From sequence record PZ386965.1: a stretch of 64,000 bases of DNA, one strand, 5' to 3'. The stretch is from a phage. The translations under genes were made by a program, and so were the position numbers. This document shows positions 8-61,915 of the stretch, one piece after another. Within the stretch, counting starts at the first letter, position 1; each line of letters starts with the position of its first letter. Under the pieces are notes generated by a model that did no database searches, was not told the DNA's origin, and saw nothing but the letters and a program-made list of their open reading frames with translations.

Positions 8-640
8 TCACAGTACGTTAGTTACAAGGGTAATGATTTCTTTAGACACATTAGGGAAGTCAATGTAAGTATATTTACCACCGATCTTAATCTTAACATC
101 ATTTTCAAGAGAAGTAAACAGCTTTGATTCAGTTTCTGACATGTTGTATGCAAAGATTCTAAGAGCGCCATCTCGTCGAATTTCAATTTGGCGAATGCCT
201 AGAACTCGTTTAGCGAATCGAACTTCTAAGTTACTACGGTTTTCACCAATTTCTTTAACTTCAACTTTATCTTTAATATTTTCAAAAACAAAGTTTGCTA
301 ATTCATGCATTTCAGGAGTAACTCCACGTGCTTTTCTGGTGTTACGTTTCTGAAGAAGTTCTGGAGCATTTTCTTGGGCAAAGAGGTCTGCAGCTTTTTG
401 GATAATATCCATTGCTTCGCCTGTTGCTACAAGTCCATCACCGGATTTTTCGACTAAACCTTTCTTAATCAATACACCAATGTTAGAGTTAACAACTGAT
501 GCACTGTATTCTGCTTCCAGAGCTTCACGGACATTGGCAGCAGTGGTGAAGTTGTTCTTAATGATATAAACCATTATTGCAGCAGTTTTTTCATTCAGAG
601 CGTTTTCAGAAGCTTTGATGATGTAAGTAACTTTAGACAT
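8..640 (-). CDS. motA: MotA, middle-transcription activator
   Basis: 210 aa; N-terminus MSKVTYIIKAS and length match T4 MotA; SD GGAG upstream. Confidence 0.9.
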   Translation of the reverse strand: MSKVTYIIKASENALNEKTAAIMVYIIKNNFTTAANVREALEAEYSASVVNSNIGVLIKKGLVEKSGDGLVATGEAMDIIQKAADLFAQENAPELLQKRNTRKARGVTPEMHELANFVFENIKDKVEVKEIGENRSNLEVRFAKRVLGIRQIEIRRDGALRIFAYNMSETESKLFTSLENDVKIKIGGKYTYIDFPNVSKEIITLVTNVL

Positions 641-706
641 TTTATTTCTCCAAATTAGTATTTGTTTTGATAGGTCTATAATATCATGTTTGAAGCAAAA
701 GTAAAC
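625..706 (-). repeat. promoter/5'UTR/start cassette, copy 1 (motA)
   Basis: about 80 bp about 90 percent identical to 945..1028. Confidence 0.7.
678..706 (-). promoter_or_regulatory. early-type sigma70-like promoter for motA
   Basis: minus-sense GTTTAC - 17 nt - TATTAT then conserved AGACCTATCAA. Confidence 0.6.
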
Positions 707-743
707 TTTATTTTGGGCTCTTTTTCAAAAGCCCTGGTAAAAT

Positions 744-959
744 TTACAAACTCATTTCTTTAATAAGGCTAATAAGTTTTGCCTTTTTAGAACGAAGCTT
801 TTCTAAATGATGTCCATTTGAACCGCGAACCACTAAAGAATTGATTTCAACTTCTAAGAAATTTAATTCTTCAACAAGTGCTTTACGAGGAGCATTCATA
901 CCAGGTTTAACTTTACCGAAACGAGTAGTTGTGTTTTGGGTTAATTTCATTTTAGACAT
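744..959 (-). CDS. hypothetical protein, 71 aa
   Basis: ORF with same promoter/UTR/MSK start cassette as motA. Confidence 0.5.
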   Translation of the reverse strand: MSKMKLTQNTTTRFGKVKPGMNAPRKALVEELNFLEVEINSLVVRGSNGHHLEKLRSKKAKLISLIKEMSL

Positions 960-1028
960 TTTATTTCTCCAATTTGGTTGTTTTGTTTTGATAGGTCTAT
1001 AATATCACGTTTGAAGCACATGTAAACT
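945..1028 (-). repeat. promoter/5'UTR/start cassette, copy 2
   Basis: near-identical to 625..706, including RBS and ATGTCTAAA start. Confidence 0.7.
999..1027 (-). promoter_or_regulatory. early-type promoter for 71-aa gene (duplicate of motA promoter)
   Basis: GTTTAC - 17 nt - TATTAT; near-identical to motA promoter/UTR. Confidence 0.6.
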
Positions 1029-1038
1029 GTTTTGTGAG

Positions 1039-1070
1039 AAAAAAAAGCACAAAAGGGAGCCGAAGCTCCC
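1039..1070 (-). terminator. intrinsic terminator after gene 52
   Basis: GGGAGC-ttcg-GCTCCC hairpin followed by T-run in minus sense. Confidence 0.65.
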
Positions 1071-1146
1071 TAATCATGTTTGTCCAACCAATACAGCCAA
1101 ATCACTAGTGCAGCTATTGCACCGAGAAATCCTAAGGCTAGGGCAC

Positions 1147-2472
1147 TCAAAGTGCCTCCAAGTCTTTAGTGTACTCTGTCACAACATCAGTAGACTTCCA
1201 ATACTCATTTTCTTCTTTCTTAGCTTTAGCTTCTTCTGCTAGTTTACGTGCTTCGTCGGAAGTGATATGGAAGATGTTAAGACCCACCAGTTTATCGACA
1301 TGTTCTTTGTACATTTCGATTTGTGCTAGCTCTTCAGTCAAAGCTTTACGAGTCTTGCCCTGAATCACGATTTCACCGTTGATAACTTTTTTGATGAAGT
1401 GTGCCTTAGCAAAAGCCAGTTTAAATGCTTTTTCAGATTCAAGGATTTTGTTGTCAATACGTTTCTGAACGTAAGTCTTACGGACTTCAACAAAATCTTT
1501 GATTAAGTCCACTACGTTATCGTAGACTGCTAATTTACCCTTTTCATTAATCACTGTGATGTTTTGTGAACGACGTTCGATGAGACTAAAATCTTTCATG
1601 ATTTTTTCATGACGTAGCTCTTCATCATCAGGAAGCGAGTACTCTTTACGGAACTTCACCTTAAACCCAAAGCCGTGTTCACCACAATCATCTTCCCATG
1701 AGATTAGACCTTTGTCTTCCAACGGGTCAAGAACCTTACTCACATACGTTTCACGGTCGAATTTATACGGGATTTCAGTTATCTGCATTTGAGTGCGAGA
1801 TGTGAACTTATATGTTCCGTGAATCTCATAACGCCCATCAACTTCATGTACTTCACCATGGAATTCCGGGAATTCAACTTTTGGCTTAGTGACATTTTTA
1901 CCTTGAAGAGCTTGTAATACAGCCTTTTTTACCGATTTAAAACTATGAGGCAGAATACTTGTTGCGTAACCGGTTGCAATACCAGATACACCATTCAAAA
2001 GAACTGTCGGAATAATAGGAAGATAGAATTTTGGTGGAACGTGTTCTTTATCTTCATGAGCTGGAGCATATTCAGTATCTTTATATACGTTATAGAAATT
2101 TTTACTTACACGAGCAAAAATATAACGAGATGCTGCAGCTTTTTGGACTGTTCGAGAACCAAAGTTGCCTTGACCATCTAATAGTGGATAGTTGTTATTC
2201 CATGTGTTAGCCATCAATGCACCTGCATCTTGTGCAGAAGATTCACCATGGTGATAACCTAAATCTGCAACACCGCCTGCAATTGACGCAAGTTTATGAA
2301 ATTTTTCTTTATTACCACGAGCCAAATCTAACGCACGATGGACCACAAAACGTTGAACCGGCTTAAATCCATCAATCATGTTTGGGATTGCACGGTTTTC
2401 AACGGTGTACATCGCATATGCTAAGGCTTCGTTATCAATAATACTTTTTAGATTACGAGAATTCAATTGCAT
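1147..2472 (-). CDS. 52: DNA topoisomerase II medium subunit (GyrA-like)
   Basis: 441 aa, T4 gp52 size and synteny next to motA. Confidence 0.9.
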   Translation of the reverse strand: MQLNSRNLKSIIDNEALAYAMYTVENRAIPNMIDGFKPVQRFVVHRALDLARGNKEKFHKLASIAGGVADLGYHHGESSAQDAGALMANTWNNNYPLLDGQGNFGSRTVQKAAASRYIFARVSKNFYNVYKDTEYAPAHEDKEHVPPKFYLPIIPTVLLNGVSGIATGYATSILPHSFKSVKKAVLQALQGKNVTKPKVEFPEFHGEVHEVDGRYEIHGTYKFTSRTQMQITEIPYKFDRETYVSKVLDPLEDKGLISWEDDCGEHGFGFKVKFRKEYSLPDDEELRHEKIMKDFSLIERRSQNITVINEKGKLAVYDNVVDLIKDFVEVRKTYVQKRIDNKILESEKAFKLAFAKAHFIKKVINGEIVIQGKTRKALTEELAQIEMYKEHVDKLVGLNIFHITSDEARKLAEEAKAKKEENEYWKSTDVVTEYTKDLEAL

Positions 2473-14790: not shown

Positions 14791-14822
14791 AATGTTTTTT
14801 CCTGTTTGGTTAAGATAGAAAT

Positions 14823-14852
14823 ATTATACTCCAACCATCCTTGGTTGTAAAC
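14823..14852 (-). promoter_or_regulatory. promoter for paralog member 3
   Basis: GTTTAC - 18 nt (CAACCA..TGGTTG inverted repeat) - TATAAT. Confidence 0.55.
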
Positions 14853-14857
14853 TGTTT

Positions 14858-15535
14858 TTATCGCTGTTTTACACTTAACGGGTCAGGATTCTCAGGGACA
14901 TCTTCAAGGCCAAGCGCATAACGCTGAGCATATTTTAACATCAAAATATCTTTAGCACAATCGTGAATACTATCATGGGCAACGAATCCTTTTAGCGTAC
15001 CCATCGGTAATGGACACATACTTAATCCTCGTGTCAACGAGTAAGCTTCGATTGCCGTACGAATATCACGTTGAGCCCAGAATTTAACAGGTTCTAATTT
15101 ATCGGTATCAATATCTGGTTCAAGAACACCTTCATCACGATAGAGGTCACGAATCAAATCGACCAAGATCGGGAAGTCAAAGCTCATACCACGGCACCAC
15201 ATCTGTGATTTCCATTGGTCAACTTTATTAGCTCGACAATAATCTAAAAAGATTTTAATGCCTTCAAGCGTAGTGACATCGTCTTCAGACGGGGCCAGGT
15301 TTTTACGTGCTTCTGCTGATTGTTCTTTCCACCATTTCATAGTGGATTTAGCGAAAACTCGCTTCCCTTTTTGAGAAGCTAAATTAAATTTAATTCGCTT
15401 ACCTCGTTGAACAAGTTCTTCAAATGTTTCAACAACTTCAGGGTCCGAATTATATGCAATAACCGCAAGGTCAATAACAGCCGCTTTTGATGTATTGCCG
15501 AATGTTTCAAAGTCTATAATAACATCAGTGCTCAT
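14858..15535 (-). CDS. dexA: exonuclease A (DEDD 3'-5' exonuclease)
   Basis: 225 aa; IIDFETFG Exo I motif; T4 DexA size and position. Confidence 0.8.
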   Translation of the reverse strand: MSTDVIIDFETFGNTSKAAVIDLAVIAYNSDPEVVETFEELVQRGKRIKFNLASQKGKRVFAKSTMKWWKEQSAEARKNLAPSEDDVTTLEGIKIFLDYCRANKVDQWKSQMWCRGMSFDFPILVDLIRDLYRDEGVLEPDIDTDKLEPVKFWAQRDIRTAIEAYSLTRGLSMCPLPMGTLKGFVAHDSIHDCAKDILMLKYAQRYALGLEDVPENPDPLSVKQR

Positions 15536-57673: not shown

Positions 57674-57735
57674 AATATTTTCCTCTCGTTAAGATAGAAA
57701 GATTATACTCTAACCATCCTTGGTTGTAAACTGAT

Positions 57736-58695
57736 TTATGATTTTAATGCATTCATTGCGTTAAAAAGTTTAGAGTATTGCAACTGGAGATTGGTCACCA
57801 CCTGTTGAGCATCACGAAGCTTAGCTTGTGCCTTATCAAGTTCAGCAGACAGTTGGTCTACAGTAGCCTTGATTTGATTGTAATAATAATCTTCAGCCGG
57901 AAGAAGGTCATTAGAAACATTTAGTTTTACTGCCGACAGTTTGCACACATTTGGCAAACCTTTAAACATACCAGATTGTGCTGGAGAATATGCACCTAGA
58001 ACCTCTGCATTACCGACTGGTGTTGCTGTAATATTGCCTTCAAACAATGCATTTTCCTTTTTAAGATTTTGATAGTATTCAGAGTCTTTGTGCCACCATG
58101 GTGCAGGAACCTTTTTACCAATAGATACACGAGCTTGGATAGCGATATGGCCCTTATTCTTGATAAGGTCGACAATATTAAGCTCACGAGAATAAATTGC
58201 TTTAATCTGGTGGATATTATCACCTAAAACTTCCAACGCTTGGTGGAATACACGAGCAACGTTATCATTCTTAGGTTTATACGTAAGAGTGAACTCATTC
58301 TCACTGATAACCATGATTTCCAACTTATCGTAAGTATATTTCAAATGTTTCATGTTAATTGCTTGAGGACGAATACGAGAAGCAATGGCCATCAGATTGT
58401 TAAGGTTATTCCGGAACTGCTTAGCGAAATATTGTCCTTCACCGCCAATACAAAAATTACGAAGTTTCTGTTTGGCCAGTAAACGACTGAACTCGCCATT
58501 TTTAATGAACTCTTTAACGGGTGTGTTAGTAACGCATTCAAATTGAGTAAACTTACGAGAATTAATCCCATAATACGAACAGATTTCTTCAATCTCTTCA
58601 GGAGTCTTTACAGGCATACGGATAGGATTAGGTCCTGGGGTATATGCGTTCGAGGTAAATTCTTTGATAAGTTCTCTACGTGTAATAAAAGCCAT
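57736..58695 (-). CDS. hypothetical protein with C-terminal coiled coil, 319 aa
   Basis: ORF behind CCAAGGATGG-type promoter. Confidence 0.55.
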   Translation of the reverse strand: MAFITRRELIKEFTSNAYTPGPNPIRMPVKTPEEIEEICSYYGINSRKFTQFECVTNTPVKEFIKNGEFSRLLAKQKLRNFCIGGEGQYFAKQFRNNLNNLMAIASRIRPQAINMKHLKYTYDKLEIMVISENEFTLTYKPKNDNVARVFHQALEVLGDNIHQIKAIYSRELNIVDLIKNKGHIAIQARVSIGKKVPAPWWHKDSEYYQNLKKENALFEGNITATPVGNAEVLGAYSPAQSGMFKGLPNVCKLSAVKLNVSNDLLPAEDYYYNQIKATVDQLSAELDKAQAKLRDAQQVVTNLQLQYSKLFNAMNALKS

Positions 58696-60363: not shown

Positions 60364-60392
60364 ATAATAACATAACCATAGACCTTGTAAAC
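60364..60392 (-). promoter_or_regulatory. early-type promoter with 8-bp inverted repeat straddling -10
   Basis: GTTTAC AAGGTCTATGG... TATTAT AGACCT. Confidence 0.55.
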
Positions 60393-60820: not shown

Positions 60821-61822
60821 TTATTTCAGTAAAGTAACTTCCGAGATTTCTTCCCAACCATCTTTATCAGTTGAAATAAAATCTGCTACATAAAGAGCCG
60901 TACGTAATGATACATTGCGAAGACGAGATACGTTAGCCTTCATCCAGGACAATGCTTTATACGTTTCTGCATCCGTCAGACCACGTTTCTGCATCATGTC
61001 AGTAGATAATATTACATCTTCAACTCGAACCATAATCTCTTCATTAGAGTGTACTCCAAGGTCGAGATACACTGAACGAGATACTAAAGCTTGAAGGTGT
61101 GGAGCAAGTTTCGAACCCCGTTCTAACTCTTTATCGATATCAACGTTTGTAATGAAAACGATAGTACCTTCAAACTCAAATTCTTTATCAATACCCTTAT
61201 CCTCGAGATAAGATGACGCAGTGCTCCAACAAACTTTGCGTTTATCTCCGGTATCTAATGCGGCTTTAAGAAGGTTCAGGATGTCCATATCTGAGAATAC
61301 GTCAACGTCATCGATTAAGAGAACGCTGTCTGCATCACGGTTGAGCCAAAGTTGTTCGTAAAGGCCAATACCAGAGATTTTACCATTAATGCTTTTGTAT
61401 TTGATGAAACCATTATCATTAGCATTACTAAGTGCTTTATCCAGAGAATACGTCTTACCAATACCAGCTGCACCTGAAATAATGAGTGAACGAATTTTGC
61501 CATCGATAATGCCATTCGTCATCATGTTCATTACTTTAAAGCGTTTGTTGATACGAGTTTTCATATCTTCAGTGCTTTCAACAACTGCAACTGGTGATGT
61601 CTCAACTCCTTCCATTACGATGTCTGATTTGAAGACCCATACTCCACGTTCAGAACCATCAATCATAACGAAAATTTTACCGTCACCTAAGTGAGAACAT
61701 TCAGGATTAAGCTTTGCCGGGAACCAGGTCTTTGTGGCAACATAAGAACCAGAGATTTCGTTATTACGATAGATACCTTTTTTGATTTGAACGTTGAACA
61801 TTTTATTCTCCAATTTACTCAT
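60821..61822 (-). CDS. P-loop NTPase (AAA-like ATPase) of unknown function
   Basis: Walker A ISGAAGIGKTYS and Walker B VLLIDDVD. Confidence 0.6.
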   Translation of the reverse strand: MSKLENKMFNVQIKKGIYRNNEISGSYVATKTWFPAKLNPECSHLGDGKIFVMIDGSERGVWVFKSDIVMEGVETSPVAVVESTEDMKTRINKRFKVMNMMTNGIIDGKIRSLIISGAAGIGKTYSLDKALSNANDNGFIKYKSINGKISGIGLYEQLWLNRDADSVLLIDDVDVFSDMDILNLLKAALDTGDKRKVCWSTASSYLEDKGIDKEFEFEGTIVFITNVDIDKELERGSKLAPHLQALVSRSVYLDLGVHSNEEIMVRVEDVILSTDMMQKRGLTDAETYKALSWMKANVSRLRNVSLRTALYVADFISTDKDGWEEISEVTLLK

Positions 61823-61890
61823 TTCGTTTCGATAGGTCTATAGTATCATATCCTAAAAGCATGTACACTACTTTTTAAAAATATTTTAAC

Positions 61891-61915
61891 CCCCTAAAGG
61901 GACCCGAAGGTCCCC
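61891..61915 (-). terminator. hairpin after secreted-protein gene (possible terminator)
   Basis: GGGACC-ttcg-GGTCCC; T-run interrupted. Confidence 0.4.

Follow-up and report, generated by a model that had tools for sequence, protein, structure and literature searches.

A repeated promoter-leader cassette brackets a small variable gene between gene 52 and motA in an RB69-like phage

Introduction

The DNA in front of motA in sequence record PZ386965.1 raises the question of what it means that motA and the small gene next to it begin with nearly the same promoter, 5'UTR and first codons. The window analysed here (the whole stretch of 64,000 nt) is from a Mosigvirus, RB69-like and of the T4 type, and matches Shigella phage SHSML-52-1 at 99.5%. 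On the minus strand, the order of genes in the slot is gp52, a 71-aa gene and motA, and the two copies of the cassette, here called U (before the 71-aa gene) and D (before motA), bracket the 71-aa gene. MotA, the activator of middle transcription, is encoded at 8..640 (minus strand; Pfam MotA_activ 2e-39, MotCF 2e-8; phrog_1345 8e-90). The 71-aa cargo gene (744..959, minus strand; phrog_6200) encodes a protein with a basic, disordered N-terminus followed by a predicted two-helix hairpin. Gene 52, called gp52 in relatives, encodes the medium subunit of topoisomerase II (1147..2472, minus strand; Pfam DNA_topoisoIV 5e-78, phrog_551) and is the upstream neighbour of the variable slot. Its stop codon is overlapped by the TTG start of a 26-aa hydrophobic mini-ORF (1070..1150, minus strand), which stops at the terminator described below and is the positional analogue of the annotated post-gp52 ORFs (34-aa, 49-aa) in pEK20/Dhakavirus and T4/CM8.

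Extent and similarity of the repeat

A direct-repeat search returned two adjoining blocks at this locus, 661-715 against 982-1036 (55 nt, 89%) and 632-668 against 951-987 (37 nt, 84% ungapped); their spacings of 321 and 319 indicate a 2-nt indel between them. In a gapped global alignment of 951-1036 with 632-715 on the minus strand, 75 of the 86 columns are identical (87%), with perfect blocks of 10, 26 and 22 nt, and blastn within the window pairs the U and D cassettes over 78 nt at 89.7% (E = 8e-20). This bears out the first-pass annotation of the locus, in which a repeated promoter-5'UTR-start cassette of about 90% identity had been described; with the ends that it gave (625..706, 945..1028) the value falls to 84% (71/85), because a few divergent coding bases are taken in. 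All direct-repeat families of at least 36 nt in the 64-kb window were found to be early-promoter cassettes.

About 17 early promoter-leader units are present on the minus strand of the window, and the 17 credible ones were compared all against all (136 pairs). Over the interval from -30 to ATG+9 the U/D pair ranks top, with an identity of 0.87 against an average of 0.60 for the early promoters of the window (sd 0.05, z about 5), and for the leader alone it is again the most similar pair (0.90 against 0.60, z about 4.4). The likeness is therefore well above that of the shared promoter consensus. It is extremely improbable that two ordinary early promoters simply happen to look alike, even though every early promoter of the window has GTTTAC and a TG-extended -10, and often TAGACCTATCAA too; an explanation from shared consensus only was rejected by the comparison of the 17 units and by the blastn E value, and the leader and first codons are common to the two copies as well. 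The U and D segments are true paralogous copies of one promoter/5'UTR/SD/start-codon cassette.

Anatomy of the cassettes and predicted expression

Read on the minus strand, the U cassette (951..1036) runs from an AT-rich tract, TTTTTTTTCTCACAAAACA, through the -35 element GTTTAC (1022-1027), TGCTTCA (1012-1018) and a TG-extended -10, TATTAT (999-1004), to the SD GGAG (967-970) and ATG TCT AAA (951-959), with 39 nt from the -10 to the ATG. The D cassette (632..715, minus strand) has the same parts, namely an AT-rich tract, AAAATAAA, GTTTAC (701-706), TGCTTCA (691-697), a TG-extended TATTAT (678-683), GGAG (648-651) and ATG TCT AAA (632-640), with 37 nt from the -10 to the ATG. TG stands at -15/-14 in both copies, and both have the arrangement GGAG-N7-ATG. 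Thus the motifs listed in the first-pass annotation (GTTTAC-N17-TATTAT, SD, ATG TCT AAA and TGCTTCA in the spacer) were all recovered, each of them twice. Each cassette would fire as an immediate-early sigma70 promoter, and since the interval from -10 to +20 is identical in the two copies, the transcripts should begin at the same relative position; judged from these signals, motA and the 71-aa gene are both probably early genes. Both leaders are unstructured (fold z about 0 against shuffled sequence), which rules out a riboswitch-like element or a structured leader in their common 5'UTR.

A stem-loop precedes each cassette. The one before U (1044..1071, minus strand) has a 7-bp GC stem and a UUCG loop, AGGGAGC-UUCG-GCUCCCU, followed by a U-run encoded by UUUGUGCUUUUUUUU; it was returned by a terminator scan, folds at -15.5 kcal/mol (z -3.8), is labelled a terminator in the annotations of ATK47 and SA79RD, and is a predicted intrinsic terminator closing the gp52 transcript. 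The one before D (715..734, minus strand), GGGCUUUU-GAAA-AAGAGCCC, has an 8-bp stem and folds at -12.3 kcal/mol (z -2.5). It is annotated as a terminator in SA79RD and is kept in Dhakavirus with one compensatory change, from G-C to A-U; as no U-tract follows, it is more likely an attenuator or a hairpin for processing than a full terminator. With U behind a predicted terminator and D behind a hairpin that lacks a U-tract, transcripts from U probably continue across the 71-aa gene into motA, and an occupied slot would thus provide motA with two tandem promoters. A third, more distant cassette of the same sub-family (61798..61915, minus strand; 52 nt at 85% to the U copy) sits 5' of the gene for a 326-333-aa P-loop protein, and consists of the stem-loop GGGGACC-UUCG-GGUCCC, the -35 GTGTAC, the -10 TACTAT and a long leader with the SD region GGAGAAUAAAAUG.

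The two mRNAs are predicted to have a common ribosome-binding region, UUGGAGAAAUAAAAUG, in which GGAG is the SD of both copies, in an unstructured intergenic translation initiation region. According to earlier reports on RegB, the consensus for cleavage is GGAGRAYARAA, and T4 motA is a good substrate whose mRNA is cut in the SD (Uzan et al. 1990 in PMC3014915; Durand et al. 2006, PMC1702504; Hinton 2010, PMC2988021). The RegB literature also has it that the regB of RB69 has diverged and that cleavage occurs at RB69 sites. The cassette sequence GGAGAAAUAAA matches the 11-nt consensus at 9/11 positions (mismatches at positions 7-8, no C), while T4 motA, GGAGAUUAGAA, matches at 10/11 and the third cassette, GGAGAAUAAAA, at 11/11. 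The motA and 71-aa mRNAs are both probably RegB-sensitive, as far as can be predicted from the match, and from the resemblance of UUGGAGAAAUAAAAUG to the RegB/S1 site of T4 motA both genes would get a short burst of early translation.

The TGCTTCA motif

In the first-pass annotation, TGCTTCA in both spacers was likened to a MotA box, with co-regulation of the two genes and possibly autoregulation by MotA. On such a reading, MotA would bind there and activate or repress the promoters of motA and the 71-aa gene. The MotA box, (a/t)(a/t)(a/t)TGCTTtA, has a match in each copy, TTTTGCTTCA in D and ATGTGCTTCA in U, and its core is fitted by TTTTGCTTCA and, in Dhakavirus, by TCTGCTTTA. Both copies retain the motif TGCTT(C/T) in each of two genera, TGCTTTT also occurs in the spacer of the third cassette, and the shut-off mechanism of T4 early promoters is described as not known in the literature. 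The two copies of TGCTTCA go back to one duplication, however, and are not independent evidence; TGCTTYA is also common, with 68 occurrences in the 64-kb window, and the T4 motA promoter is without a forward TGCTT.

It was reported that a MotA box, centred at -30, must precede the -10 by 12 +/- 1 bp and takes the place of the -35, and that MotA alone binds DNA weakly, with a Kd of 100-600 nM (Hinton 2010, PMC2988021). Only 7 bp separate the end of TGCTTCA from TATTAT (the third cassette has 9 bp), no TAnnnT is found 11-13 bp downstream of the motif in either cassette, and a perfect T4-type -35, GTTTAC at N17, coexists with it rather than being replaced. Canonical sites, TGCTTYA-N11-13-TAnnnT, number 13 in the window against 1.6 expected. 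The histogram of box to -10 spacings has a sharp peak at 12 bp, which is where the predicted middle promoters of the window fall, unlike the two cassettes, which are the only cases with a good -10 at 7 bp. The MotA-box reading was rejected on the spacing, the canonical-site search and the histogram; autoregulation of motA through this motif is thus an unlikely explanation of the repeat.

The same slot in related phages

On comparing related phages, it was found that the slot occurs in three states. It is empty, with a single chimeric cassette of one of two junction classes, in RB69 and roughly half of the Mosigvirus records. The remaining Mosigviruses, SHSML-52-1 and JS09 among them, and some Dhakaviruses have the 71-aa gene. 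In Dhakavirus JS10/EcWhh-1 and many Tequatroviruses, equivalent cassettes enclose a 75-aa gene that is unrelated to it. About 77 phage records match the entire 641-nt query, and by tblastn the 71-aa gene is present at an identity of at least 95% in 76 records, of about 156 Mosigvirus-like records. Other loci, among them those of mar005P1, 308Ecol101PP, JM10, JK45 and RB69, are about 320 bp shorter, which is the length of exactly one repeat period; they have no ORF and only one cassette. Flanking direct repeats lie 325-345 nt apart in occupied loci, whereas such repeats are absent from the empty loci of T4 and RB69. The 75-aa ORF is mostly conserved at 95-99% amino-acid identity (at least 95% in 138 of the 168 matching records, many of them Tequatrovirus). 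In CM8, the one such Tequatrovirus locus examined, it lies directly 5' of motA, and motA stands under a Dhakavirus-type cassette. A scan of IMG/VR for the D-cassette signature returned 3 loci. The duplication described in the first-pass annotation stood, its MotA box and autoregulation were not supported, and what it had overlooked, that the repeat marks an insertion/deletion/replacement polymorphism, is, on comparison of the genomes, the main significance of the repeat.

The junctions of the empty sites are chimeric. In RB69 and pEK20, the U flank and U spacer are joined to a D-type leader, which would place a crossover within the 26-nt block. In mar005P1, 308Ecol101PP, JM10 and JK45, a U-type leader is fused to the motA coding sequence, a composition that points to a crossover within the 22-nt block GGAG...ATGTCTAAA. 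A mosaic patch, the D-type spacer TTT, was observed in the U copy of SA79RD and in the mar005P1 copy. The copies also evolve in concert: both have TGCTTT and TACTAT in Dhakavirus, and both have TGCTTC and TATTAT in Mosigvirus.

The 71-aa gene

Comparison with the Dhakavirus orthologs gave a dN/dS of 0.21-0.24 for the 71-aa gene, that is, purifying selection, and a dS of 1.0-1.2, which equals that of motA (1.19). On this substitution pattern it is a real, vertically inherited gene, and the empty Mosigvirus sites are then most simply deletions. The direction of change, deletion or insertion, was assigned by parsimony over a dozen loci. The Mosigvirus gene begins with ATG TCT AAA (MSK) and the Dhakavirus ortholog with ATG AAT AAG (MNK), while MSK is the start of motA in Mosigvirus, Dhakavirus and T4 alike. 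It thus appears that the first three codons of the Mosigvirus gene were copied from motA, with codons 2-3 converted to those of motA, and to this extent the proposal in the first-pass annotation that the 71-aa gene was copied from the motA signals holds.

The protein was modelled by AlphaFold with a pLDDT of 76 and helices at 23-44 and 50-70. A Pfam search gave no match, its PHROGs family, phrog_6200, is one without known function, and a search of the PDB by sequence gave nothing significant. Only 8 close relatives, all unnamed, were found among 5.8 billion proteins, and the matches of Foldseek in BFVD and PDB were confined to its own ortholog or to helical hairpins of a generic kind.

Probable recombination between the cassettes

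PeSL (promoter-early stem-loop) cassettes have been described in RB49/phi1 (Arbiol et al. 2010, PMC2839356) and in PST/T4 and nt-1/KVP40 (Comeau et al. 2014, PMC4122927), where they serve as substrates for homologous recombination. Neither report mentions the gp52-motA locus, or Mosigvirus/RB69-like phages with the Dhakavirus lineage. The sequence features by which such cassettes are recognised were all found here: an early promoter, an AT-rich tract, a stem-loop, an SD with a start codon, multiple copies in the genome and a variable flanked cargo. The D hairpin, which lacks a U-tract, fits the stem-loop of a PeSL in the looser sense of an attenuator, not in that of a terminator. It is quite likely that U and D are PeSL-type regulatory cassettes flanking a small accessory gene in the gp52-motA slot and acting in both expression and recombination, and the repeat fits this known mechanism of gene shuffling rather than a MotA feedback circuit.

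Recombination between the cassettes is what we infer from comparative sequence alone. Perfect blocks of 22-26 nt within about 86 nt of 87% identity, repeated 320 bp apart, would be a substrate for phage homologous recombination. A crossover between U and D would delete the cargo and leave one chimeric cassette, and gene conversion would homogenise the two copies. Cargo together with its own promoter could be inserted or replaced by the reverse reaction or, during mixed infection, by recombination with a second phage. As the blocks of perfect identity are only 22-26 nt long, the rate of such events may be low.

Selection alone, holding both cassettes to an optimal early promoter and a RegB/S1-sensitive initiation region with no recombination between the copies, appears improbable as a full account. 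T4-type early promoters are conserved well past the -35 and -10, the third cassette, 61 kb away, has the same leader/SD pattern, and between the genera the cassette core, at about 92%, is far more conserved than the synonymous sites of the flanking genes (dS about 1.1); this conservation could be due to selection on promoter function no less than to exchange. However, selection leaves unexplained the identity of U and D at spacer and leader positions that are outside the consensus and variable in the other 15 promoters, and the genus-specific substitutions common to both copies. Nor does it explain why mosaic patches differ from strain to strain, why codons 2-3 were converted, or why the indels measure exactly one repeat period and have their junctions within the blocks of identity.

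A bolder combination can be drawn, to which we likewise give little weight. Here the slot before motA would be a hotspot of exchange between genera, in which cargo that brings its own promoter rewires motA (cf. CM8), and TGCTT(C/T)A at -26 to -20 would be a non-canonical MotA site helping to shut off these early promoters, including that of motA. If true, this would offer a concrete mechanism for the shut-off of early promoters, which reviews call unexplained.

Significance

No new kind of regulatory circuit is revealed by the gp52-motA locus. It would rather be a clean and well-sampled natural case of PeSL-mediated shuffling in RB69-like and JS98-like coliphages, with three allelic states, at least two independent junction classes and traces of gene conversion in one place. 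Many coliphages of these two kinds are being isolated for therapy. With promoter cassettes that double as recombination sites, accessory genes would arrive ready for early expression, and the promoter of an essential regulator, motA, would be swappable as a by-product. The slot flanked by cassettes accounts for a recurrent difference in annotation among Mosigvirus genomes, and the analysis flags a conserved, probably early 71-aa gene as dispensable cargo.

Comparison with known systems

Like the T4 middle promoters that depend on MotA/AsiA, the cassettes have a good -10 and the heptamer TGCTT(C/T)A, but the distance between the two is 7 bp, not 12 +/- 1, and the -35 is complete, which places them outside this class.

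In T4, motA likewise has an early promoter directly 5', behind the terminator that follows gene 52, and an unstructured leader in which the SD GGAG is followed by an A-rich tract. The spacer and leader sequences differ between the two phages, the predicted RegB match is 9/11 here against 10/11 in T4 motA, and only here is the unit duplicated before a second gene.

The closest likeness is to the PeSL cassettes, which likewise combine a stem-loop and an AT-rich tract with a sigma70-type early promoter, an SD and a start codon and are conserved over about 100 bp. GTTTAC-N17-TATTAT fits the PST/T4-type consensus TTTACW-N17-TAYWAT (PMC4122927). In both systems the cassettes stand directly 5' of small ORFans, pairs of them flank a gene where a close relative has one chimeric cassette instead, and they are tied to deletion, insertion and replacement of the cargo. 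For PeSLs, promoter and terminator activity and mini-circles are experimental criteria, whereas the gp52-motA cassettes are known as sequences. Unlike in the PeSLs, the repeat runs through the leader into the first three codons, and one of the flanked genes is an essential master regulator rather than another ORFan. As that gene is motA, exchange of the cargo would also swap the motA promoter, as in CM8.

The duplicated cassette at the motA locus

Over positions 1-2600, the window matches Shigella phage SHSML-52-1 at 99.5% identity; for many other Mosigvirus (RB69-like, T4-type) phages the figure is 98%. The minus strand carries gene 52 (topoisomerase II; 1147-2472), a 26-aa hydrophobic mini-ORF (1070-1150), a 71-aa ORF (744-959; phrog_6200, unknown function, no Pfam match) and motA (8-640). 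The mini-ORF, MSALALGFLGAIAALVIWLYWLDKHD, is unannotated and begins at a TTG that overlaps the stop codon of gp52; in relatives its place is taken by other, unrelated small transmembrane ORFs (34 aa in pEK20 and Dhakavirus, 49 aa in T4 and CM8).

A repeat search of the window returned two direct repeats, 661-715 with 982-1036 (55 nt, 89%) and 632-668 with 951-987 (37 nt, 84%), shifted relative to each other by a 2-nt indel. In a gapped alignment, the upstream copy ahead of the 71-aa gene (U copy, 951-1036, minus strand) and the downstream copy ahead of motA (D copy, 632-715, minus strand) are identical in 75 of 86 columns and agree without mismatch in three blocks (10, 26 and 22 nt). Both consist, in order, of an AT-rich tract, GTTTAC, a 17-nt spacer with TGCTTCA, a TG-extended TATTAT, AGACCTATCAAAACAAA..., UUGGAGAAAUAAA and AUG UCU AAA. 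An all-pairs comparison of the early promoter-leader units judged credible on the minus strand (17 in all) put the U/D pair first, with an identity of 0.87 against a mean of 0.60 (z ~5; leader only, 0.90 against 0.60). What the other early promoters share is limited to GTTTAC and a core of 17-26 nt surrounding the -10. In 15 of the 17 units the end of the -10 and the ATG are a strikingly constant 26-32 nt apart, which leaves leaders of about 20 nt with little beyond the SD; in the two cassettes this distance is 37 and 39 nt, the longest found. The duplication reported in the first-pass annotation is therefore real, and the similarity goes beyond promoter consensus.

The U copy is preceded by AGGGAGC-UUCG-GCUCCCU and a U-run (-15.5 kcal/mol, z -3.8), a strong predicted intrinsic terminator. 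Upstream of the D copy lies a hairpin of 8 bp capped by a GAAA loop, GGGCUUUU-GAAA-AAGAGCCC (-12.3 kcal/mol, z -2.5), which has no U-tract and is kept in Dhakavirus with one compensatory change, G-C to A-U. Folding of the shared leaders gave nothing beyond chance.

Promoter class and predicted expression

TGCTTCA had been likened to a MotA box. In middle promoters this box lies 12 +/- 1 bp from a stringent -10, in place of the -35 (Hinton 2010, PMC2988021). In the cassettes 7 bp separate the motif from the -10, the -35 is perfect and there is no alternative -10 at the right distance. TGCTTYA occurs 68 times in the window, where canonical TGCTTYA-N11-13-TAnnnT sites number 13 against 1.6 expected; the box-to--10 spacing on the coding strand peaks at 12 bp, and a 7-bp spacing with a good -10 is confined to the two cassettes. 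The T4 motA promoter has no forward-orientation motif. On spacing, the perfect -35, canonical-site statistics and the T4 comparison, MotA-dependent promoters were rejected. Within the T4 spacer, GTTTACAACCAAAGCATACTGTGGTACTAT (locus L007), AAAGCA (TGCTTT read on the opposite strand) falls at roughly the place that TGCTTCA has in the Mosigvirus cassettes, which may be coincidence. The cause of early-promoter shut-off is unknown according to the literature, and MotA could be imagined as a non-canonical repressor at the cassettes, but nothing in the present analysis supports such a role.

Judged by their sequence and by knowledge of T4, both copies would act as T4-type early promoters with -35, TGn and -10 elements, a class described as very strong. 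Transcription should start at the same site in both because the stretch from -10 to +20 is identical. GGAGAAAUAAA, present in both predicted mRNAs, agrees with the RegB/S1 site GGAGRAYARAA at 9 of 11 positions. In T4 motA 10 of 11 positions agree; it is a good RegB substrate, and cleavage in its SD confines MotA synthesis to an early burst. Transcripts from the U promoter would probably run on into motA, since the D hairpin has no U-tract. Of the first-pass interpretation, the shared expression cassette stands and co-regulation of the 71-aa gene and motA is probable; the present analysis sees both as probably early, RegB-sensitive genes and drops the MotA box.

The 71-aa gene

In the Dhakaviruses JS98 and CLBP2, the 71-aa gene also lies between two equivalent cassettes. 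Against Dhakavirus its dN/dS is 0.21-0.24, which marks it as a real gene, and its dS (1.0-1.2) is level with the motA value of 1.19, which argues that it was co-inherited with its flanks since the split of the two genera. Only eight close homologs of the protein were found among 5.8 billion proteins. Its predicted fold is a two-helix hairpin after a basic, disordered N-terminus, and fold and PDB searches gave no informative match. In Escherichia phage ECCR664 (locus L012), a 1-nt deletion in an A-run near the 3' end (AAAAGGC against AAAAAGGC) ends the tblastn match at residue 68; this could be a frameshift allele or a sequencing error.

Empty slots, chimeric cassettes and cargo replacement

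With 560-1200 as query, about 77 records matched over the full length, and in a second Mosigvirus group the match was shorter by exactly one repeat period. The 71-aa gene was found at >=95% identity in 76 records (tblastn) among ~156 of Mosigvirus type, i.e., in about half. Six retrieved loci (RB69, mar005P1, 308Ecol101PP, JM10, JK45 and pEK20) each have gp52, the terminator, one cassette and motA, and in all six the gene is absent from the slot. Their single cassettes are chimeras of two kinds. In RB69 and pEK20, flank and spacer are U-type and the leader is D-type, which places the crossover inside the 26-nt block; in the other four, the motA coding sequence is joined to a U-type leader, which places it inside the 22-nt GGAG...ATGTCTAAA block. 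Since the gene appears to have been co-inherited with its flanks, deletion is the simplest reading of the Mosigvirus empty sites, and two classes of junction mean that it took place at least twice.

The SA79RD U copy and the mar005P1 single copy have a D-type spacer (TTT), not ATG. TGCTTT and TACTAT are found in both Dhakavirus copies, TGCTTC and TATTAT in both Mosigvirus copies. The 71-aa gene starts with MSK (ATG TCT AAA) in Mosigvirus, as does motA, and with MNK (ATG AAT AAG) in all Dhakavirus orthologs. These patches, the genus-wise shared bases and the MSK start can be read as signs of exchange between the two copies.

The cargo also varies. In the Dhakaviruses EcWhh-1/JS10, an unrelated 75-aa ORF lies between the same cassettes; it has counterparts in 168 records, with amino-acid identities mostly of 95-99%, and many of these records are from Tequatrovirus. 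In Shigella phage CM8, the one locus of this kind examined, it lies immediately upstream of motA, and the predicted drivers are T4's native motA promoter for the cargo and a Dhakavirus-type cassette for motA. Flanking direct repeats lie 325-345 nt apart at the occupied loci of CM8, JS98 and EcWhh-1, and none were found at the empty T4 and RB69 loci. The 75-aa ORF is 98.7-100% identical between JS10/EcWhh-1 (EcWhh-1, locus L011) and many Tequatroviruses (CM8, locus L017, 290-810), while the flanking motA genes are only ~50-70% identical between these genera; this implies a recent transfer between genera into the slot upstream of motA.

Other early-promoter units in the window

A third, more distant member of the cassette sub-family lies at 61798-61915 (minus strand), upstream of a 326-333-aa P-loop protein (60821-61822). 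It has the stem-loop GGGGACC-UUCG-GGUCCC, GTGTAC-N17-TACTAT with TGCTTTT in the spacer 9 bp from the -10, a long, 41-nt leader and GGAGAAUAAAAUG, which matches the T4 RegB/S1 consensus perfectly. Another near-identical pair, 14809-14858 and 57688-57737 (minus strand; also 14250 and 58708), is 94% identical across the promoter and 82% when the comparison is carried on to the ATG, with a hairpin, AACCAAGGATGGTT, in the spacer; it is probably another sub-family of promoter-early stem-loops (PeSLs) and may be another shuffling site. Many early promoters have an inverted repeat across the -10 (minus strand, -10 at 60369, 25454, 24713, 4086 and 3574), for example AGGTCTAT...ATAGACCT and TAGGACTA...TAGTCCTA. 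These correspond to the PeSL subclasses with a stem-loop between -35 and -10 or overlapping the -10.

Comparison with known PeSLs

Comparative data support a model in which the two copies would serve as substrates for homologous recombination and gene conversion, leading to deletion, homogenisation and cargo exchange. It is quite likely that a PeSL-type cassette pair serves both to express and to mobilise a small accessory gene beside motA. PeSLs were described in RB49/phi1 (Arbiol et al. 2010, PMC2839356) and extended to PST/T4 and nt-1/KVP40 (Comeau et al. 2014, PMC4122927) as conserved units of ~100 bp with a stem-loop, AT-rich region, early promoter, SD and start codon. They flank ORFans, a sister phage having one chimeric PeSL instead, and excision and integration via mini-circles was the proposed mechanism. 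All sequence-level defining features are present at this locus. Since motA and RB69 are absent from both papers and JS98 receives no more than a brief mention, the locus is best regarded as a new PeSL instance from a different lineage rather than a novel type of element.
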